Below are positions 31,838-63,484 of a stretch of 64,000 bases of DNA, piece after piece. Source of the stretch: an uncultured Mailhella sp. (GTDB taxonomy: Bacteria > Desulfobacterota > Desulfovibrionia > Desulfovibrionales > Desulfovibrionaceae); assembly GCA_944324085.1 (NCBI GenBank), contig CALUUX010000036.1:32779-96778 (forward strand). The letters are read 5' to 3'. Each line of letters opens with the position of its first letter. The first letter of the stretch is position 1. A program made the position numbers and the translations under genes. Under the pieces are notes generated by a model. It made no database searches. It saw nothing but the letters and a program-made list of their open reading frames with translations, and was not told where the DNA came from.

Positions 31838-33082
31838 ATGTCGTATTCGCTGTTCATTGCTTCGCGTTATCTCACCTCGCGGAACAAGCGCACGTTCATT
31901 TCCATCATTTCGTTCATGTCAGTGCTGGGCGTGGCCATAGGCGTGGCCGCGCTCGTCATCGTCATGAGCGTGTATAACGGCGTCACCGAAGAGATGCGCG
32001 AGAAAATACTCGGCGCCAATCCGCATATCATGGTCATGGCCACGCAGGCCGGTGCCTTCGGTCCTTCGGCCGCCAAGGGCGAGGGCGAGGTGATCGAACG
32101 CATACGCGAAACGCCGGGCGTGGTGTCCGCCACGCCTTTTCTGTACGCCGAAGTGTTGCTTTCCACGCCGCAGGGAGCCACGGGCCTGGTCGTGCGCGGC
32201 ATTGATCCAGCTTCCGCGGGCGAAGCCATGCCGCTGCTCCATCATCTGGAAAGCGGGAGCGTGGACAACCTTTCCCGAGAAAGCGGCCCCGCGGGCATGC
32301 TTGTGGGGCACGATCTGGCTCGACGCTTCAATTTGCGCGTGGGCAGCCGCGTGAATCTCATGTCGCCGGCGGGGCAGCGCACCACGGCGGGCTTTGTACC
32401 CAAGCTGCGTTCTTTTCGCGTGGAAGGCGTGTTCAAGTCCGGCATGTCCGATTTCGACAGTCGTCTCGCGTACGTTCCGCTGGCGGCCGCGCAGGATCTC
32501 ATGGGCTATCCCGACGGTCATGTGTCCGGCGTGGAAGCCTTTGTCAAAAATCCCTACGACGCGCGGGAAATCGCCGCAGACATGGCGCAGAGACTCGGTC
32601 CGCCTTTCTACGCCCGCAACTGGATAGACATGAACGCCAATCTTTTTGCCGCGCTTCAGCTGGAACGCTTCGGCATGTTTATTGTGCTGCTCATGGTCAT
32701 TCTGGTGGGATCTTTTTCCATTATTACGTCGCTCGTGATGTTGGTGATGGAAAAAACTAAGGATATCGCCATATTGATGTCTATGGGGGCCACCGCTGCG
32801 GGGATCCGGCGCATTTTTATGCTGCAAGGAGCCATCATCGGAGTGGTTGGCACGTCCATAGGTTATGTGCTAGGAATCGTGCTGGCGCTGCTCCTCAAGA
32901 AGTACCAGTTCATCGAATTGCCTCCGGGCGTGTACATGATGGACACGTTGCCGGTCATCATTGATCCGCTGGATCTTCTCATCATCGGAGTTGTCTCCAT
33001 GCTGATGTGTTTTGTGGCCACCATCTATCCCGCCAGACAGGCGGCGCGTCTTGTGCCGGCCGAGGCTCTTCGCTATGAATAA
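31838..33082 (+). CDS. lolE: Lipoprotein-releasing ABC transporter permease LolC/LolE
   Basis: ISIISFMSVLGVAIGVAALVIVMSVYNG, MEKTKDIAILMSMGA, IYPARQAA. Confidence 0.9.
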   Translation: MSYSLFIASRYLTSRNKRTFISIISFMSVLGVAIGVAALVIVMSVYNGVTEEMREKILGANPHIMVMATQAGAFGPSAAKGEGEVIERIRETPGVVSATPFLYAEVLLSTPQGATGLVVRGIDPASAGEAMPLLHHLESGSVDNLSRESGPAGMLVGHDLARRFNLRVGSRVNLMSPAGQRTTAGFVPKLRSFRVEGVFKSGMSDFDSRLAYVPLAAAQDLMGYPDGHVSGVEAFVKNPYDAREIAADMAQRLGPPFYARNWIDMNANLFAALQLERFGMFIVLLMVILVGSFSIITSLVMLVMEKTKDIAILMSMGATAAGIRRIFMLQGAIIGVVGTSIGYVLGIVLALLLKKYQFIELPPGVYMMDTLPVIIDPLDLLIIGVVSMLMCFVATIYPARQAARLVPAEALRYE

Positions 33083-55490: not shown

Positions 55491-58400
55491 TTACGCTATG
55501 CCGAGGTATTTTTCAAAGAAGGCCCGGAGCTTGCCGATGACGCGCTTTTTGACGGATTCCCGATTGCCGCCGCCGAAGCGCGACATGGGGGGAAGAATCC
55601 GGTCGATGTCGGTTCCAGTGGTTTTCAGCGTGCCGTCGCGGAAGGCGTTGTCCATGAACTTTTCGGCAGGTTCGGGCTTGAGATTCTCTTTGGCAATGAT
55701 GTCGGCAAGATCGGAGGCCTTCTTTTCCCGCACATAGTTCTGCCAGTCATCCTGCACGGAGGAGGACGCATTGATGCGCTCGATGAATTCTTCGATGAGC
55801 GTTTTCTTGCTGCGCAGCTCGATGCTCGAACCGATGGCCTTGTCGATGGTGGTGAGAATTTCCTTGTTGCGGCAGTGGGAATCCCGATACTTTTCAATGA
55901 GCATCAGAATGTAGTCGATGTTGATTTCCACCTGCCGGACGAGTTCCATTTCAAAGACGATATCGGCGTTGATGTCTTCCTTTTCGCCGTCTTCGTGCTT
56001 CGACCATTTCTGATAGAGGTCGAGGTAGAGGCTCTGATAGTCCTGAAAATCCCGGGTGGAAATGATTTCCTGTCCCTCGAATTCGTCGAAGCTGGTGAGG
56101 ATGTTTTTCAGGCGAAGCAGGGCGCCGAACAGGGAAATGAAGTCCTTTTCGTTCTGTTCGCCGACAATGGCGACGCCGAGGGGAAAGCGCGTGAGCAGCG
56201 CGTTGATGAGTTCGGTATAGCCGGGCTTGTGTTTCCCGTCTTCATCGTAGCCCTGGTAGTAGGCGTCGTAGGTTTTGAGCAGCACGATGCCGCCGGCGTC
56301 CCTGTTGCCGAACAGGGCGAGGGCCTCGTCGGTTTCCTTTTGAAGATCGCGGAAGCAGACGATGTTGCCGAAGGTCTTCACGGAATTCAGAATGCGGTTG
56401 GTGCGCGAAAATGCCTGAATGAGTCCGTGCATTTTCAGATTTTTGTCCACCCAGAGGGTGTTCAGCGTGGTGGCGTCGAAACCGGTGAGGAACATGTTCA
56501 CCACGATGAGCAGATCGACCTCCCGTTTTTTCATTCTGAACGAAAGGTCTTTATAGAAATTGTAGAACTTGTCGGACGATGTATCGAAGTTGGTGTGGAA
56601 GACGGCGTTGTAGTCTTTGATGGCGTTGTCGAGAAAGTCGCGCGATGTCTGGTCGAGGTCTTCCGTATTGAAGCTTTCGTCGCCGAGCGAGTCTTCCGGG
56701 GCGTCTTCATTGGCTCCGTAGCTGAAAATGGTGGCAATGGTGAGCTGTCTTTTGCGTTCTTCGAGCTGCCGTTTGAACTCCGCATAATACTTCATGGCCA
56801 TGGGAATGGAGCTCACGGCAAGAATGGAGTTGAACCCGGCCACGCGCTGCCCTTTGAGGGTATAAAAGCTGTTTCTCTTGGTTTTCTGATCGAAGTGATC
56901 GAGGATGTAGCGTACTATTTCGCCGACGCGCTCGGGGGAATTGAGCACCTTTTCGGTATTGATGGCCCGAACCTGTTCATCGCGAACGTCGTCGGCCATT
57001 TTTATGGTGTTCACGTAGTCGATGCGGAAGGGCAGAACGTTGCCGTCGTTGATGGCGTCCACGATGGTGTAGGTGTGGAGCTGATCGCCGAAGGCCTGCG
57101 GCGTGGTTTTGAGTCGGAGATTGCCGCCGCTTCCGGCGTTCTGGGCAAAGATGGGCGTGCCGGTGAAGCCGAAGATGTGATATTTCCTGAAGGCATGGAT
57201 TATTTTTAGATGCATGTCGCCGAACTGGGAACGGTGACATTCGTCGAAGATGATGACGACGTGCTTTTTATAGACGTCGTGTTTTGGATTGCGGCTGACG
57301 AAGGTGTCCAGCTTCTGAATCGTGGTGATGATGATGTTCGATTCGGAGTCTTCGAGCTGTTTTTGCAGTACTTTTGTGGAGGTATTGCTGTTGGCGGCCC
57401 CCTTCTGGAATTTTTCGTATTCCTGCATGGTCTGGTAGTCCAGATCCCTGCGATCGACCACGAAGAGCACCTTGTCGATATAGGGGAGAAGGCTGGCAAG
57501 CTGGGCGGTTTTGAACGAAGTGAGCGTTTTTCCGCTGCCCGTGGTGTGCCAGATGTAGCCTCCGGCATCGAGGGAGCCTTCCTTGTGGTAGTTGCTGGAA
57601 ATCTCTATGCGGGAAAGGATGCGTTCCGTTGCGGTGATCTGGTACGGACGCATGACGAGAAGGAGCTTTTCCGAAGTGAACACGCAAAAGCGCGTGAGAA
57701 TGTTCAGCAGGGTGTGCTTTGAGAAAAAGGTTTTGGTGAAGTCCACGAGGTCGGGAATGGGCTTGTTGTTGCCGTCGGCCCAGAATGAGGTGAATTCAAA
57801 GCTGTTGCTGGTCTTTTTGCTTTTTCTTCTGCCCCCGGCGCTCTGCTCCCTGATGTGGGATTCGCGCGTGGTGTTGGAATAGTATTTGGTGTGGGTTCCG
57901 TTGGAAATGACGAATATCTGCACATACTCGTAGAGTCCGCTGGACGCCCAGAAGCTGTCGCGCTGATAGCGTTTTATCTGATTGAAGGCCTCGCGTATGG
58001 CCACGCCGCGCCGCTTGAGTTCCACATGCACGAGGGGAAAGCCGTTGACCAGAATGGTGATGTCGTACCGGGTGTCGTGACTGCCGCCGTGCTCCTCATA
58101 CTGATTGATGACCTGAAGGCGGTTGTTGTGGATGTTTTTCTTGTCGATGAGGGTGATGTTTTTGGTGCTGCCGTCGTCGCGGATAAGGTTCAGAATGCTG
58201 TCTTCCTGCATGCGCCTGGTTTTTTCCTCAATGCCGTCCTGCTTGTTGGCAAGCTGCTGATGAAAAAAGCGCGTCCATTCCTCATCGGAAAAACGGAAGT
58301 TGTTCAGAAGTTCGAGCTGCCTGCGCAGATTCTCGACCAGTGTTTTTTCCTCGTGAAGAGGGAGATACTCGTAGCCCTGCGAGCAGAGCTGCCGGATGAA

Positions 58401-58514
58401 TTCCGCCTCCAGCGCCGCTTCGCTCTGGTAGGCGTCGGAGCGCACGTCGGAAGGCGTGTATGCGGCCACCACGGTGCTTTCCGGGCACTGGGCCACCATG
58501 TTGAAGCCGGTCAT
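55491..58514 (-). CDS. hsdR: Type I restriction endonuclease subunit R (type IC, EcoR124I-like)
   Basis: YQSEAALE, nuclease LVHVELK, Walker A HTTGSGKT, DECHRS, GFTGTP, MFLTGFDA, QAFSRTNR; ATGA overlap with hsdS. Confidence 0.96.
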   Translation of the reverse strand: MTGFNMVAQCPESTVVAAYTPSDVRSDAYQSEAALEAEFIRQLCSQGYEYLPLHEEKTLVENLRRQLELLNNFRFSDEEWTRFFHQQLANKQDGIEEKTRRMQEDSILNLIRDDGSTKNITLIDKKNIHNNRLQVINQYEEHGGSHDTRYDITILVNGFPLVHVELKRRGVAIREAFNQIKRYQRDSFWASSGLYEYVQIFVISNGTHTKYYSNTTRESHIREQSAGGRRKSKKTSNSFEFTSFWADGNNKPIPDLVDFTKTFFSKHTLLNILTRFCVFTSEKLLLVMRPYQITATERILSRIEISSNYHKEGSLDAGGYIWHTTGSGKTLTSFKTAQLASLLPYIDKVLFVVDRRDLDYQTMQEYEKFQKGAANSNTSTKVLQKQLEDSESNIIITTIQKLDTFVSRNPKHDVYKKHVVIIFDECHRSQFGDMHLKIIHAFRKYHIFGFTGTPIFAQNAGSGGNLRLKTTPQAFGDQLHTYTIVDAINDGNVLPFRIDYVNTIKMADDVRDEQVRAINTEKVLNSPERVGEIVRYILDHFDQKTKRNSFYTLKGQRVAGFNSILAVSSIPMAMKYYAEFKRQLEERKRQLTIATIFSYGANEDAPEDSLGDESFNTEDLDQTSRDFLDNAIKDYNAVFHTNFDTSSDKFYNFYKDLSFRMKKREVDLLIVVNMFLTGFDATTLNTLWVDKNLKMHGLIQAFSRTNRILNSVKTFGNIVCFRDLQKETDEALALFGNRDAGGIVLLKTYDAYYQGYDEDGKHKPGYTELINALLTRFPLGVAIVGEQNEKDFISLFGALLRLKNILTSFDEFEGQEIISTRDFQDYQSLYLDLYQKWSKHEDGEKEDINADIVFEMELVRQVEINIDYILMLIEKYRDSHCRNKEILTTIDKAIGSSIELRSKKTLIEEFIERINASSSVQDDWQNYVREKKASDLADIIAKENLKPEPAEKFMDNAFRDGTLKTTGTDIDRILPPMSRFGGGNRESVKKRVIGKLRAFFEKYLGIA

Positions 58515-59746
58515 TTTGCCTCCTTGAAGGTAAGGAGCTTGTCGCGATAGTATTCGTATTGTTTCTTTCTGGCCTCTATTTCGGCGGGCAGACCGCTGGA
58601 GAGATCGTTGCACAGCGCGTCGAAACGGTCGAGAATGGAGACGATGCGTTCCTGCTCTTCAAGGGGTGGGACGGGAATAGGAGTTTTTTCAATTTGAGAT
58701 ATCGTATAGTGTGCAATAGTTGCATTATGAGTTATGTTTAATAAGTATTCTTTAAAATTTGTAGATAGAAAATAGTAGTATAAAAATTTACTTATTACAT
58801 ATTTATTTTTTTTAATACATATAACATCAGCATCTTTTATATAGATTGGATTGTCATTCGGAATAATATAGGGAATTCCTATTGTACCACCTCCTGTTAT
58901 AAGTATATCTTCTTTTTGAAACTTTCCTGATTTATTAGATAAATTATGATATAGATTATTAGATATAAATACTTTTCCTCGGCTATTTTCTACTCTATAA
59001 AAAAAAGAAATTATATCACTAGCTCTATAAAATGGAACACCTGTACTTTTCCATTCATTTTTATGAACTCGAGATGCAGAGAAAACTTGTGTGACTTCTC
59101 CTATTTTTTTCCATGCAACATTATTAATATGAAATAAATTGTTTTTGTAATATTGATACTGCTGCTTTCTTTTAGTGAGTTCGGAAGTAAGCTCGGAAGT
59201 AAGCTCGGAAGTAAGCTCGGAAAACGTATCCAATATCCTCACAATTTCTTTCTGAACGGGAAGAGGAGGAATGGGAACTTTATATTTTTTTATATCAGAA
59301 TCAGATATTGAAGGATAGCTTGCTCCTTGCTGATGTTTTTCAACATAGTCCATAAAAGTGAATGAAGAAACTATATGATATAACCATCTTGCATTTATTA
59401 TAGAAAGATCAGGACGAAGGACACAGAAACCAGTGCTGCAAATCTGGTTGTGATAAGTCGCATTAATTTGACAATACCTTTTTAAAAGTGGTCGTGTAGT
59501 ACCAAATAAAATATCTCCAAATTTAACTATCTGCTGAGCCCTGCTTGGAGCATTATCTTTATTTATTTCTGTTGTTTCAATAATGTTATGTGTTTCTCTA
59601 TCTACCGATGACAAATCTATATATTGAAATAGAGACTTTTCATTTTTCCATTTTATATTATCAATCTTTTTGATACAATCACCTATGGACTTATACTCCA
59701 CCCCGTTTGGGCAGAGCTCTTCTATGAGTCGTTCCAGTTTGTTCAT
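58511..59746 (-). CDS. hsdS: Type I RM specificity subunit S (type IC)
   Basis: LIEELCPNGVEYK, two conserved PxPPLxxQxxIVxILDxF regions, GLPAEIEARKKQYEYYRDKLLTF; two AT-rich TRDs. Confidence 0.95.
   Translation of the reverse strand: MNKLERLIEELCPNGVEYKSIGDCIKKIDNIKWKNEKSLFQYIDLSSVDRETHNIIETTEINKDNAPSRAQQIVKFGDILFGTTRPLLKRYCQINATYHNQICSTGFCVLRPDLSIINARWLYHIVSSFTFMDYVEKHQQGASYPSISDSDIKKYKVPIPPLPVQKEIVRILDTFSELTSELTSELTSELTKRKQQYQYYKNNLFHINNVAWKKIGEVTQVFSASRVHKNEWKSTGVPFYRASDIISFFYRVENSRGKVFISNNLYHNLSNKSGKFQKEDILITGGGTIGIPYIIPNDNPIYIKDADVICIKKNKYVISKFLYYYFLSTNFKEYLLNITHNATIAHYTISQIEKTPIPVPPLEEQERIVSILDRFDALCNDLSSGLPAEIEARKKQYEYYRDKLLTFKEAK
59174..59221 (-). repeat. 12-bp tandem repeat x4 encoding SELT in the HsdS central spacer
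   Basis: TCCGAGCTTACT x3 perfect plus TCCGAACTCACT on the coding strand. Confidence 0.97.
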
Positions 59747-59783
59747 GGGATTCTCTTTTTTCTGGTGGAAATAGCAGTTATAC

Positions 59784-60638
59784 CTATTTTTCAGGTAATT
59801 TCCCTGTCTGCTTGCCAAGTTTTTTTACTTCTGATTTGACACGGCGTTCTACTTTTTTGATATCTTCATCAGCGGGCAGTTCTTCCGGTTTTATACCGCG
59901 TTTTCCAAGCATTTCACGAACACTGGTATTGTTTTGTACATGCTCGTTGCTGATAGCGCTTTCGCCAAACAAGTCTTCCTGCTGAACATTATAATTCGTC
60001 ATCTCAGCGGCAAGGTTTTTGGCTGCTATCGTGAGCGTGGGCAGAAAATCAGCAAGAGGACGAGACCCCTTGATGCCATATCTGTCCTTCATCTGTTGAG
60101 TATTAAATCCCCCAAAAAGGGCTTGATCGCCCTTAGAGCGAATTCGACCAAAGCCTTTATCATCGACTCCGCGTTCATAGATATTTTTTGACAGCAGAGT
60201 TTCGGCTTCACGAAGTCTGTCACGAGCTTCAGTACGCTCAATCAGTTTTAAACGTTCTTCAATTATTTCTTGTTTGCGGGTTTGTACGGCAAAATAGCAT
60301 TGGGCAAAAGCTATCGGTTGTTTACGTGGATCTCCATTTTGAGCAATAAGGTAGCAGGCATAACGAGTGAGCATAAAATCTTCCACTTCTCGTTTGGCTC
60401 CACTGCCCAGCTCAACCATTTTCGTGACGCCACGAAAATGGTCATCGACATTGAAACCGGAAGTGGAACAGGAAATAATTGCCCGCTGAATGGCTTGAAT
60501 GAAGTTTTCCCACCGAGAGTACCCCAATAAGGGCATCAAGTCTCTTGCAAACCAGAATTCTACCCCTGTGGATTCATCTGACTGACATGAAATGTCAAAC
60601 TGTTCCTGTAAAAAGTTTTGAGTATTTTTTTCAATCAT
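59784..60638 (-). CDS. dinD: DNA damage-inducible protein D family (Bro-N-like)
   Basis: WFARDLMPLLGYSRWENF, DDHFRGVTKMV, LTRYACYLIAQNGDPRK, YFAVQTRKQE, NEHVQNN. Confidence 0.88.
   Translation of the reverse strand: MIEKNTQNFLQEQFDISCQSDESTGVEFWFARDLMPLLGYSRWENFIQAIQRAIISCSTSGFNVDDHFRGVTKMVELGSGAKREVEDFMLTRYACYLIAQNGDPRKQPIAFAQCYFAVQTRKQEIIEERLKLIERTEARDRLREAETLLSKNIYERGVDDKGFGRIRSKGDQALFGGFNTQQMKDRYGIKGSRPLADFLPTLTIAAKNLAAEMTNYNVQQEDLFGESAISNEHVQNNTSVREMLGKRGIKPEELPADEDIKKVERRVKSEVKKLGKQTGKLPEK
60415..60443. repeat. Palindromic site, copy 1 (inside dinD)
   Basis: accattttcgtg-acgc-cacgaaaatggtc; exact reverse complement of 29 nt of copy 2. Confidence 0.95.
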
Positions 60639-60683
60639 ATCTGCCTCTTATTTTGTGATATGCTGACTGGTCGCCATGCCGTG

Positions 60684-60713
60684 GACCATTTTCGTGGCGT
60701 CACGAAAATGGTC
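60684..60713. repeat. Palindromic site, copy 2 (fic-dinD intergenic)
   Basis: gaccattttcgtg-gcgt-cacgaaaatggtc, perfect 13-bp arms. Confidence 0.95.
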
Positions 60714-60718
60714 CTATT

Positions 60719-61261
60719 CTATTGTTTTTTATACCCTTCGTAAAAATAGGACTGCTCAATGACTTTGAAGATGACTTCCCTGTCGTCGATTCTGTCGGTC
60801 AGGTTCGGCTGAAGAAGGGCGCGGAGTTCCAGGTCGTTGACGGGGCTGCGTTCCATGGCCTGAAGGTAGAGCGTCTTGTCCACGTTCTGCCAGTTCACCA
60901 CCTGCCGGAGATGCTTTTTCAGCATCATGTCGAGCCATATGCGCGTGGCGCGGCCGTTGCCTTCCATAAAGGGATGGGCGACGTTCATTTCCACATATTT
61001 GGCAACGATTTCTTCAAACGTGCCCTCCGGCATCTTCTCTATGGCAGCAAGCGCCTCCTTGAGGTACAGGCTGTTGGCGAAGCGGAAATTCCCCTTGGAA
61101 ATGTTCACTTCCCGAATCAGCCCGGCAAAGTCGTAAAGGCCGCCGAAAAGATATTCGTGTATCTGTTGAAGGCCGCGGGTGGTGCCTACTTCCATGCGGT
61201 CGATGTCGCCGGATTCAAAGAGACGCCGGGCGTTTTGAAGGCTGATTTCGTCAATATTCAC
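60719..61261 (-). CDS. fic: Class III Fic protein (AMP-transferase, NmFic-like)
   Basis: Active-site [12 protein letters not shown]; C-terminal inhibitory motif SYFYEG; GTG start overlaps the hsdM TGA. Confidence 0.92.
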
Positions 61262-62829
61262 CGGTTTTCCCCTTCAATCTCGGCGATGATGGCGTCGATC
61301 TGCCGCCGAAGTTCCTGCTCTCTGGCCACAATCTGCGCAAGTTCCTCGTTCAGCTTGCGGATGTCGATGACTTCCCGCGTGTCTTCCTGCTCCACATAGG
61401 TGCTCACGGAAAGATTGTAGTCCTGAGCGGCTATCTCGTCATTGGGAACCAGTCTGGCCACATGATCCGCGTCCTTGCGGGCCGTGTACGCGTCGAGAAT
61501 GTTCTGAATGTTCTCGTCGGTCAGCTTGTTGGCGTTCGTCACCTTCACGCACTGGGCCGAAGCGTCGATGAACAGGGTGCTGTTTTCCTTTTTGGATTTC
61601 TTCAGCACCATGATGCAGGTGGCGATGGTGGTGCCGAAAAAGAGATTGGCGGGGAGCTGAATGACGCAGTCCACGAAGTTGTTGTCGATGAGGTACTGGC
61701 GAATCTTCTTTTCCTTGCCGCCGCGGTACATGACGCCGGGAAAGCAGACGATGGCCGCCGTGCCGTTTGTGGCCAGCCAGGAAAGCGAGTGCATGATGAA
61801 GGCGAGGTCGGCCTTGGACTTGGGGGCCAGAACCCCGGCGGGCGCAAAGCGCGGATCGTTGATGAGCAGCGGATTGTCTTCCCCTTCCCATTTGATGGAG
61901 TAGGGCGGATTGGAAACAATGGCCTCGAAGGGTTCGTCGTCCCAGTGCTGCGGCTCCGTGAGCGTGTTCCCGAGGGCGATGTCGAACTTGTCGTATTCGA
62001 TGTCGTGCAGGAACATGTTGATGCGGCACAGGTTGTAGGTGGTGATGTTGATTTCCTGCCCGAAAAAGCCCTGCCTTACCTTGTCTCTGCCGAGAATCTT
62101 GGCGAACTTGAGCAGCAGGGAACCCGAACCGCAGGCCGGATCATACACCTTGTTGACCTCGGTTCTGCCCACCAGCGTGATGCGGGTGAGCAGTTCCGAG
62201 ACTTCCTGCGGCGTGTAGTATTCGCCGCCGGACTTGCCTGCGTTGGAGGCGTACATGCCCATGAGGTATTCGTAGGCGTCGCCGAAGGCGTCGATGGTGT
62301 TGTCCTGATAGTTGCCGAGCTTCAGATCGCCTATGCTGTGCAGCAGCTTCACGAGTTTTTCGTTTCGCTTCGGCACCGTGTCGCCGAGCTTCTTGCTGTT
62401 CACGTCAATGTCGTCGAACAGGCCCTTGAAGTCGTCTTCGCTGTCGTGGCCTGAGGCGGAACCTTCAATGTGGCGGAAGGCTTTTTCCAGCGTTTCGTTC
62501 AGGTTGTCATCCATGGCCGCGTAACGGCTCACGTTCTGGAAAAGTTCGCTGGGCAGAATGAAGAAACCCTTGGTGTTCACCATTTCTTCCCGTATGCTTT
62601 CCGCTTTGGCGTCGGAGAGCATCACGTAGTCGAAATTCTTGTTTCCGGCTTCCCACTCTCCCCGATTGATGTAGTCGGCAAGATTTTCCGAAATGTAGCG
62701 ATAGAAGAGCATGCCGAGGACGTACTGCTTGAAGTCCCATCCGTCCACGCTTCCGCGCAGCTCGTTGGCAATGTTCCAGATGACGCGGTGCAGTTCCGCC
62801 CGTTCCTGTTCCTTTTTGTTGCCGGCCAT
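61258..62829 (-). CDS. hsdM: Type I RM methyltransferase subunit M (m6A)
   Basis: [33 protein letters not shown], motif [12 protein letters not shown], motif IV NPPY. Confidence 0.97.
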
Positions 62830-63484
62830 ACGCTCTCCCGTCCATGTTTCCGCAAAGTTGTGCGGAAACGCTGTTCAACTGAATGGACAAGAATAGCAGC
62901 GGGCCGGGATTTTTTCAAATGCGTTCCGGGGAGTAAAACGGGGTTTTCGAAGCATGTATTGCGCGCGGATTTTTCAAAAATCATTTTTTAATTTTATATG
63001 CTTATATAGAAATAATATCCGATGGGAGATTTTACTGTGTAGGATGACTCTCTGATCGGTTGCCCCACCATCCCGTGACAGACTCAGACGGCTTTCATCG
63101 TCCATGGATTCCAGCGAGTTCTTGACGAGCTCGTCGTCCGCCAGTTCATTCTGAACGGAATTCTTCTCTTGAAAAGGGGCGGCAACTGTCTGGTCATGGG
63201 CTTTTCCTTGTCAGTTTTGCCAATTTCAACGCCGGTCCTTCTTGCTTCTTATCGAGATGACGCTGCATTGACGCGCCTGCCGATTGCAGCTCGTGGGGGC
63301 TTGAAGAGCGATATTCAGAGCCGAGTGCGGGTCGGTCTTGACTGGTCGCTTTTCGGCCTCCCCATAGAGGCATAACGCGCACAGAGTCGCAACGCCTTGC
63401 GAGATCTCCTTTATTCCGGCAATGTCCCTGGGGTGTCGTTGTTTCTTGCGTGTGTCCGCTCCGGGGAAGAGCGCGCTTGCATCG

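Follow-up and report, generated by a model that had tools for sequence, protein, structure and literature searches.

Why should a type I restriction-modification (RM) operon carry the same palindrome twice around the start of dinD, a classic reporter of the SOS response that often travels in type I restriction operons? The operon in question lies in a stretch of DNA of 64,000 nucleotides (nt) from an uncultured Mailhella sp. (assembly GCA_944324085.1, contig CALUUX010000036.1, forward-strand positions 32,779 to 96,778), which we refer to as the window and to which all coordinates without a locus label belong. A first-pass annotation of the window had described a 29-nt palindromic site that occurs twice, in inverted orientation, around the dinD 5' end, and had read the pair either as an invertible switch or as operators through which the DinD protein regulates itself. 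Direct reading of the sequence agrees with the description: the reverse complement of copy 2 is copy 1, exact over 29 nt. We find that both sites are, with little room for doubt, copies of a palindrome that is shared across the dinD family. The features on which the argument turns are these:

60415-60443 (60414-60443 as a 30-mer), minus strand: copy 1, the in-frame dinD palindrome, 29-nt letters ACCATTTTCGTGACGCCACGAAAATGGTC
60685-60713 (60684-60713 as a 30-mer; stem span 60683-60714), no strand: copy 2, the free-standing upstream copy, letters ACCATTTTCGTGGCGTCACGAAAATGGTC
60444-60683, minus strand: the bracketed segment between the copies, 240 nt, with the ribosome-binding site AAGAGG, the dinD ATG at 60638 and codons 1-65, which make up most of the Bro-N / winged-helix N-domain
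59784-60638, minus strand: dinD, 284 amino acids, DNA damage-inducible protein D, Bro-N domain, PADLOC candidate PDC-S13

Each window copy is an inverted repeat of 12-14 base pairs (bp) flanking a 4-nt centre. On the minus strand, copy 1 (60414-60443) reads GACCATTTTCGTGGCGTCACGAAAATGGTT and supplies dinD codons 66-75; as annotated, it encodes DHFRGVTKMV. Copy 2 sits in the spacer between fic and dinD, starting 5 nt past the fic stop codon (60719-60721) and ending 45 nt ahead of the dinD ATG (60638), with a 14-bp stem (60683-60696 paired with 60701-60714) around its 4-nt centre. The copies lie ~270 bp apart, and the segment that they enclose does span 240 nt and hold the ribosome-binding site and first 65 codons of dinD, as had been noted. 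Their arms are identical (13/13), and their essential difference is a flipped 4-nt centre, GCGT against ACGC, giving an identity of 29/30 if the copies are aligned as inverted and 27/30 if aligned as direct. Because each copy is itself a near-perfect palindrome, the choice between inverted and direct is decided by two central bases only. The claim that the cores point in opposite directions therefore stands insofar as the centres do read inverted, and is reduced insofar as the asymmetry consists of those two bases.

The pair is not a product of chance. Allowing up to 3 mismatches, the palindrome pattern occurs 2 times in the window and 0 times in 100 shuffles, and with up to 2 mismatches these are the only two places in the whole genome (2.31 megabases, 94 contigs). 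We rejected the longer repeat reported by a repeat finder (44 nt, 86%): past the palindrome, 10/21 flanking bases match (P ~0.03 before correction for four comparisons), which is not significant, and the idea that copy 2 is the relic of an inverted dinD fragment was dropped for this reason. The flanks of copy 2 hold no dinD-like sequence.

The in-gene copy has counterparts throughout the dinD family. We collected ~200 dinD loci from 35 species genomes, 80 metagenome contigs and 80 viral contigs (labels such as L063 are our own), the species genomes spanning Chlamydiota, Proteobacteria, Bacteroidota, Bacillota, Cyanobacteria, Planctomycetota, Spirochaetes, Chloroflexota and three archaeal phyla. 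The element is defined as a 30-nt self-complementary stretch at the D/N-H-F-x4-K-M-V/I codons of dinD, and copy 1 conforms to it. In a codon alignment, synonymous sites in the flanks are saturated, yet the ten motif codons are palindromic almost everywhere. Among 153 non-redundant dinD genes, pairs 2-13 of the 30-mer are Watson-Crick in 140-152 (92-99%), compared with 16-36% pairing in control 'palindromes' moved by whole codons. The outer motif codons are mutual reverse complements (GAC/GTC, CAT/ATG, TTT/AAA). Further in, a change in one arm is matched in the other, with an amino-acid replacement as the price: we observed the paired codon states CGT/ACG (R..T), GCC/GGC (A..G), GTT/AAC (V..N), GCT/AGC (A..S) and CGG/CCG (R..P), as well as CGC/GCG (R..A), GAT/ATC (D..I), TGT/ACA (C..T), CAA/TTG (Q..L) and TTC/GAA (F..E). 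Multiple pair types are seen at pairs 3/28, 10/21, 11/20, 12/19 and 13/18.

This covariation is strong and independent of the tree. Using a tree built from the rest of the DinD protein, with the motif columns excluded, we counted 34 state changes at pair 3/28, which is nevertheless paired in 153/157 sequences. In a sign test on phylogenetically independent pairs, 3/28 gave 17 changes in the same sense and 0 in the opposite (p = 1.5e-5), and pairs 10/21, 11/20 and 12/19 gave p = 0.016-0.03; the control, position 3 against position 31, gave p = 0.69. Pairing is conserved by compensatory changes, beyond coding constraints. The excess symmetry at synonymous sites that the first-pass annotation had raised is present across the family, and even non-synonymous sites keep the symmetry.

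The in-gene palindrome can also decay, as it has in the L015 group and in L038. The E. coli dinD gene carries a degenerate palindrome, GACCATTTCGTTGAAACCACCAAAATGGTT, with a LexA box upstream and no upstream palindrome; this gene was reached by a distant search mode, while megablast with a DHFLEVRKMV-type dinD gave no E. coli match. On one viral contig, dinD is followed immediately by a second, paralogous dinD (L167:3697-4434; 35% identical) that has a palindrome of its own, TCCCATTTTGTTGACATCAACAAGATGGTA, so that even distant paralogues retain the element. A metagenome-assembled genome of the Parachlamydiaceae holds three copies of one palindrome resembling repetitive extragenic palindromic (REP) elements, AAAGGGGTCAGGCCTGACCCCTTT, after a truncated dinD (L041:3324-3918). 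Searches of the literature on dinD with a palindrome or with type I RM, and on the arm sequence, returned no description of the element, and the dinD palindrome is apparently widespread and so far undescribed.

The same arms are also found outside dinD. Scanning viral contigs for exact CCATTTTCGTG-N4-CACGAAAATGG, we found at least 115 stretches, where our own estimate of the chance expectation, assuming ~20 kilobases (kb) per contig, is ~0.007. Of the 80 that were examined, 19 lie inside DinD-like genes and 61 are free-standing, outside any dinD, in short and mostly non-coding stretches. All 61 lack dinD-like flanks, which makes them a poor fit to relics of decayed genes. Those between co-directional genes (33) have a median distance of 50 nt from the upstream stop and 157 nt to the next start, and a stop codon frequently overlaps the element (T|GACC, T|AACC). 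At the free-standing viral copies we found no T-run and no orientation bias relative to the flanking genes. Copy 2 fits this class, with the arms of the dinD palindrome outside the dinD frame, in a short spacer beside a gene end. It is a free-standing copy in a typical position: past a stop codon, where the phage copies tend to lie, and ahead of the dinD ribosome-binding site, where the upstream copies of L039, L072 and L063 lie.

Ten scanned neighbours of free-standing copies include terminase, RhuM, Abi_2, antirepressors, one integrase and a cellulase-family (GH5) protein; with integrase as 1/10 neighbours, a role as an attP/attB core was rejected. A phage Bro-N protein was likewise rejected as an obligatory partner, being encoded in only 13/50 viral records with a free-standing copy and in 6/16 of the near-complete ones. 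DinD itself cannot be obligatory either: three genomes that are 99-100% complete, from the window's own bacterial family, contain family palindromes and no DinD, in a search whose positive controls worked. In one of these three genomes, two different dinD-type palindromes, GATCAATTTCCCGGCGTCGGGAAATTGATC and GACCATGTTCGTGCTGCCACGAAAATGGTC, stand 3 nt apart (L220:1434-1496) in an intergenic spacer, with an Mrr restriction gene on one side and a gene for a DUF1016/YhcG PDDEXK nuclease on the other. In a provirus, an exact free-standing palindrome overlaps the stop codon of a gene of the RhuM family (L228:1243-1272), which, like DinD, is often encoded within type I RM operons.

Upstream copies are not confined to the window. 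A family-like palindrome just before the dinD ribosome-binding site is present at ~11/169 non-redundant loci (~6-7%), in at least four lineages besides the window:

L039 (Chloroflexota): upstream copy 13 nt before the dinD ATG, centre direct
L072/L074: upstream copy 24 nt before the dinD ATG, overlapping the stop codon of the preceding gene, centre ambiguous in L072
L063/65/66/71/83/87/146/15/81 (gut Firmicutes and their prophages): upstream copy 19 nt before the dinD ATG, centre direct
L159: upstream copy, a possible case

The spacing from upstream to in-gene copy, centre to centre, is 235-270 bp. Within a locus the arms of the two copies agree closely in the window (13/13), in L072 (27/30) and in L063 (identical 12-nt core); in L039 and L159 the upstream arms do not match the locus's own in-gene copy. 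In L015, L081, L083 and L146 the in-gene palindrome has decayed (DHFSRFNNTI) and the upstream palindrome is still perfect. Among dinD loci with an upstream copy, only the window has an inverted centre. The recurrence of upstream copies, which the first-pass annotation had named as a test, together with the family-wide pairing, upholds its view of the pair as a non-random, dinD-linked cis element that works at the nucleic-acid level. At L059, another dinD is preceded, ~253 nt ahead of the motif, by a perfect 28-nt palindrome of different sequence, TTAAAGTGTTCGAATTCGAACACTTTAA, possibly an unrelated operator.

The pattern of mismatches bears on whether the element is read as DNA or as RNA. In pairs 2-13 of the 153 in-gene copies we counted 17 G-T, 26 A-C and 43 other mismatches, and with G-T at 17 against A-C at 26 there is no sense-strand preference for G-U wobble. 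Some copies, at L030 and L072, are perfect through the centre, leaving no room for a usable hairpin loop. By these comparisons, and with free-standing copies that show no orientation bias, the evidence leans, though not decisively, toward an element that acts on DNA and is strand-symmetric rather than a sense RNA.

What, then, might read it? The window's DinD scores 367 bits against NF008573 (cut-off 242), and has no sequence similarity to solved structures. In its AlphaFold2 model (predicted local distance difference test score 86.6), a beta-hairpin (strands 68-77 and 81-91) begins with the motif. When this model was compared with the Protein Data Bank using Foldseek, the only confident match was DdrC of Deinococcus radiodurans (7udi, 8u0g and 7qvb; E = 3e-6 to 8e-4, the best over ~240 columns, probability 1.0, template-modelling score 0.28-0.48, sequence identity 13-15%). 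DdrC is induced by damage and binds DNA as a winged-helix dimer (PMC9303277, PMC11347143). With its Bro-N domain and the DdrC-like fold of the model, DinD is a plausible reader of the palindrome.

Of the annotation's two readings, the self-operator pair is still viable. The explanation that we put first, tentatively and at less than even confidence, is that the window copies are paired sites of a dimeric protein, putatively DinD, that controls dinD-hsdS-hsdR. The palindrome would act on DNA as a strand-symmetric dyad, and the two copies, 270 bp apart, would be the two sites of such a dimer, with DinD itself the candidate by virtue of its modelled DdrC-like fold. A protein bound at the spacer site would lessen transcription into dinD-hsdS-hsdR, and the in-gene site would serve as an auxiliary operator or roadblock. 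The inverted centre of the window pair would be incidental. Arms that stay exact where nothing is encoded, with 61/80 examined viral sites outside any dinD, count among the evidence for this explanation. One further feature lies beside copy 2:

60716-60744, minus strand: promoter-like match TTTACG-17-TAGAAT, weak and at noise level, ending 2 nt before the upstream palindrome

The scan that returned it found 2 promoter-like sites, compared with 0.9 +/- 0.9 in shuffles, and promoter-like matches near the upstream copies of L063, L072 and L039 are at shuffle level, as in the window.

Several observations weigh against paired operators read by DinD. DinD is not a universal reader, given the three 99-100% complete family genomes that have copies and lack it, and a Bro-N protein accompanies the free-standing copy in only 6/16 near-complete viral records. 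The inner arms vary freely and yet stay complementary, and in L039 the two copies differ in their inner arms, a pattern better matched by selection or drive on pairing than by a protein reading specific bases. An upstream copy occurs at only ~6-7% of dinD loci and is absent from E. coli dinD, and the promoter-like match beside copy 2 is at noise level. Moreover, as outlined in PMC8794818, PMC8604942 and PMC5941160, template switching alone can bring inverted repeats to perfection and keep them there, and can also produce compensatory double changes and flipped spacers.

A possible, if doubtful, alternative is that the palindrome is itself the primary entity: an autonomous DNA element of phages and defence islands, conserved in sequence and able to form a hairpin or cruciform, which would also have resided in-frame in dinD since before the phyla diverged. 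It would serve either as an accessory-module junction without a dedicated recombinase or as a ligand of DinD-type proteins, and the window copies would delimit an exchangeable dinD 5' module, made up of the ribosome-binding site and the N-terminal winged-helix half, within a type I RM operon.

We consider it unlikely, though less so than the alternatives that follow, that the palindrome maintains itself without any function. Here a chance symmetry of the DHF and KMV codons would have been perfected and kept by intramolecular template switching, the arms repairing each other; the upstream copy would be an incidental local copy homogenised with the in-gene one, and the flipped centre a spacer inversion. 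Such a mechanism needs neither a G-U bias nor a reader protein, and it sits well with a palindrome that is able to decay (the L015 group and L038), with the absence of a recombinase or other partner nearby, and with window copies that differ essentially by a flipped 4-nt centre. Template switching is described, in the accounts of it in PMC8604942, PMC8794818 and PMC5941160, as homogenising arms, making compensatory multi-nucleotide changes in one step and inverting spacers. Yet this drive preserves complementarity and not sequence, and the same 11-nt arms are exact in at least 61 unrelated non-coding viral contexts. Nor does it account for the non-random placement of the free-standing copies between co-directional genes, a median of 50 nt past a stop, for upstream copies that recur at the same place in at least four dinD lineages, or for 0/61 free-standing copies with the dinD-like flank that relics of decayed genes would have.

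The remaining genes of the operon bear on a further alternative, in which the palindrome is a joint between modules:

61258-62829, minus strand: hsdM, type I methyltransferase, first gene of the operon
60719-61261, minus strand: fic, 180 amino acids, NmFic-type protein adenylyltransferase, PADLOC PDC-S04
58511-59818, minus strand: hsdS, specificity subunit, 27-35% G+C (GC)
55491-58613, minus strand: hsdR, type I restriction subunit, EcoR124 (IC) type

The operon is a compositional mosaic: hsdS is 27-35% GC and dinD ~44%, set against 50-60% in hsdM, fic and hsdR (58500-59850 compared with 55500-58500 and 60750-62850). Read along the operon, GC is ~55% through hsdM and fic, ~44% in dinD and ~30% in hsdS, and the break falls at copy 2. 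Such a mosaic suggests that foreign DNA has taken the place of the dinD-hsdS part. In related genomes, fic homologues lose homology just before the palindrome, so copy 2 is not part of the fic module.

We made several side observations on hsdS and its junction with dinD. The hsdS open reading frame and the dinD 3' end overlap by 35 nt (59784-59818). In the central region of hsdS (59174-59221, minus strand), four tandem 12-nt units encode FSELTSELTSELTSELTKRK, which we take to resemble the TAEL repeats of EcoR124I/II. There, the copy number of the repeat sets the spacer length of the recognition site, and a slippage-driven change of specificity is possible for the tandem units in this HsdS. DinD also matches the first 277 positions, the N-terminus, of the 717-position PADLOC model of type I specificity subunits, from which it follows that DinD-HsdS fusions exist elsewhere; one has been reported in Bibersteinia, Btr190I (PMC4996451).

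It is distinctly unlikely, in our estimate, that the palindrome is at heart a module junction or recombination anchor, a stretch of perfect identity, prone to form hairpins, where modules of accessory genes are joined and swapped. The window copies would then delimit an exchangeable dinD 5' module and mark the joint between a GC-rich hsdM-fic part and an AT-richer dinD-hsdS part, in line with the drop in GC that starts at copy 2 and with the loss of fic homology just before the palindrome. Further pointers are two mosaic dinD cases. Where two DinD proteins share at least 90% identity past the motif, their N-terminal identity is normally ~0.93. L074 (of L072/L074), compared with the L063/L015 group (among them L063/L066/L083), is 95-97% identical in protein after the in-gene palindrome and 60% before it, and L192, compared with L186/L189, is 95-97% identical after and 55% before. 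Compared as DNA, the L072/L074 case has a low-identity patch that spans the stretch between the upstream and in-gene palindromes, and in the L192 case the in-gene palindrome marks where the patch ends. In both cases the dinD 5' module has been exchanged, with one end of the exchange at the palindrome. The tandem pair of two different palindromes between Mrr and DUF1016 nuclease genes at L220, in a genome without dinD, and the accessory genes that neighbour free-standing copies (RhuM, Abi_2, antirepressors, integrase) point the same way. On the other side, no dedicated recombinase or transposase is associated with the element, and the mosaics are no proof of a selected function because a 30-bp island of identity attracts crossovers whatever conserves it. 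A coarse block-incongruence test gave little excess recombination, a result that is uninformative, and the maximum chi-square peak at the motif is confounded by a variable N-terminus adjoining a conserved C-terminus.

An element of the operon transcript is quite improbable as well. It could take the form of hairpins in the transcript, of an intercistronic 3'-end or processing element after fic, or of a long-range duplex of 29-30 bp, one perfect duplex of copy 1 with copy 2 being possible because the copies are exact reverse complements through the centre. A long perfect RNA duplex is a textbook substrate of RNase III. The predicted folds favour this idea: the local hairpins of the two window copies come to -23.9 kcal/mol (the upstream copy) and -21.0 kcal/mol (z = -5.3 and -3.3), and in the minimum-energy fold of the 328-nt leader and 5' coding region (-114.2 kcal/mol, z = -6.8) copy 2 pairs with copy 1 over its full length, a pairing predicted to close the dinD start region into a 240-nt loop. 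The free-standing copies, mostly right past stops between co-directional genes, are also placed as RNA 3'-end or processing hairpins are. However, the 153 in-gene copies show no G-U preference, copies that are perfect to the centre are unusable by a hairpin loop, and the conserved arm sequence is left unexplained. The inverted centre on which a perfect long-range duplex draws is not found in the copies of other lineages, and since the local hairpin forms first during transcription, the long-range duplex would be kinetically disfavoured. An intrinsic terminator was rejected, there being no U-tract; the minus-strand hairpin is followed by CACGGCATGG, and a terminator scan flagged the plus strand only, weakly. 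Rfam 15 gave no family match, only a chance mir-153 at 22 bits against a gathering score of 54.

Last comes the invertible switch. Here a site-specific recombinase acting in trans would invert 60444-60683, and the outcome would be a silent dinD or one with a new N-terminus, possibly with an effect on hsdS and hsdR. The appeal of this reading lies in two inverted 29-bp sites whose centre is slightly asymmetric and in the reading frame, where the annotation was correct: the plus-strand ATG at 60660 is real, and inversion gives a minus-strand product that begins MLTGRHAV-DHFRGVTKMV and runs to 227 amino acids. However, this product lacks residues 1-65, which is most of the N-terminal domain in the model, and there is no Shine-Dalgarno sequence in the 25 nt that precede its ATG, TCATATCTGCCTCTTATTTTGTGAT, so that the inverted state has no meaningful alternative output. 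The annotation was right, too, that the window holds no recombinase: neither tyrosine (PF00589) nor serine (PF00239) recombinases are matched anywhere on the 99.8-kb contig C36. Seven tyrosine and two serine recombinase genes are present elsewhere in the genome, all on other contigs, and could favour action in trans.

The annotation's reading of the sites as 11-8-11 arm-core-arm recombinase sites did not hold up. The 8-nt 'core' differs from its own reverse complement at 2 positions, and the stem is paired down to the 4-nt centre, which leaves no asymmetric crossover region of 6-8 bp; the 2-nt asymmetry could be flipped by a single template-switch 'spacer inversion' of the kind outlined in PMC8604942. 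No second orientation was seen. Identical-protein look-ups for DinD and HsdS gave no match, and an identical Fic is encoded in two other, independent metagenome assemblies, on the short contigs L205 and L206, of which only L205 spans the site; it is identical through fic, the palindrome and the dinD 5' end, in the same orientation, base for base. The L206 contig ends exactly in the centre of the upstream palindrome (L206:1425-1449), the sole place where an alternative junction could hide and a possible sign of an assembly branch. Contig breaks at palindromes are a common assembler artefact, and this end is probably an assembler break at a palindromic k-mer rather than a branch. Among ~200 dinD loci, none has the N-terminal segment on the opposite strand, and in other lineages the centres of upstream copies are direct or ambiguous. 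Lacking every supporting feature that was open to test here, a recombinase-driven switch is very improbable.

It would be unusual for a signal in the nucleic acid to take precedence over protein sequence, as a palindrome carried within dinD in bacterial and archaeal phyla would do; it is maintained although amino acids change in pairs as the price, and exact free-standing copies of it are dispersed through phage genomes as well. If it is a protein-binding site, it would give a direct handle on what DinD-type defence-island proteins recognise; if it anchors recombination, the movement of accessory modules between RM operons and phages would have an explanation; and if only a template-switch artefact, it would be among the clearest natural examples of such a mutational drive shaping a protein. 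Because the in-gene and free-standing forms stand 270 bp apart in one operon, the window is useful as a compact test construct.

Set beside known systems, the window pair resembles each in part. Like the invertible switches fimS/FimBE and hin/gin and the hsdS shufflons of type I RM systems (PMC9881135), its inverted repeats bracket a short 5' gene segment, here in a type I RM operon. In contrast to them, the window sites have no nearby recombinase and no second orientation, are almost self-symmetric with a 4-nt centre, and enclose neither a promoter nor an alternative coding module, and the same palindrome is single-copy and in-frame in most dinD genes.

A parallel may also be drawn with auxiliary in-gene operators that loop to a promoter-proximal operator, such as lac O2 in lacZ and gal OI in galE. 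The likeness is a dyad near the start of a transcription unit, a second site a few hundred bp downstream in the coding region and a candidate regulator encoded at the locus. The difference is that in dinD the in-gene site is ancestral and near-universal and the upstream site rare, that the inner arms vary with pairing kept, that the palindrome also occurs in genomes without DinD, and that binding is putative.

REP elements, bacterial interspersed mosaic elements (BIMEs) and integron attC sites are likewise short, hairpin-forming palindromes, often past stops between co-directional genes, sometimes in tandem (as at L220) and at joints of accessory modules. Unlike these, the dinD palindrome has perfect arms, no REP-associated tyrosine transposase (RAYT) or IntI partner that we found, an in-frame position in a protein-coding family and a cross-phylum range, where REPs are species-specific. 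Quasi-palindromic template-switch hotspots, as sketched in PMC8794818, PMC8604942 and PMC5941160, share the perfect arms, the compensatory double changes and the flipped spacer seen between the window copies; the mechanism predicts neither one arm sequence in dozens of unrelated non-coding contexts nor placement at gene ends. For DinD itself the comparison is with DdrC. Although DdrC compacts DNA and has breaks, not a specific palindrome, as its target, and DNA binding by DinD is putative, DdrC is the best structural match of the DinD model, and both are DNA-damage-induced in model organisms, dinD in E. coli and ddrC in D. radiodurans.

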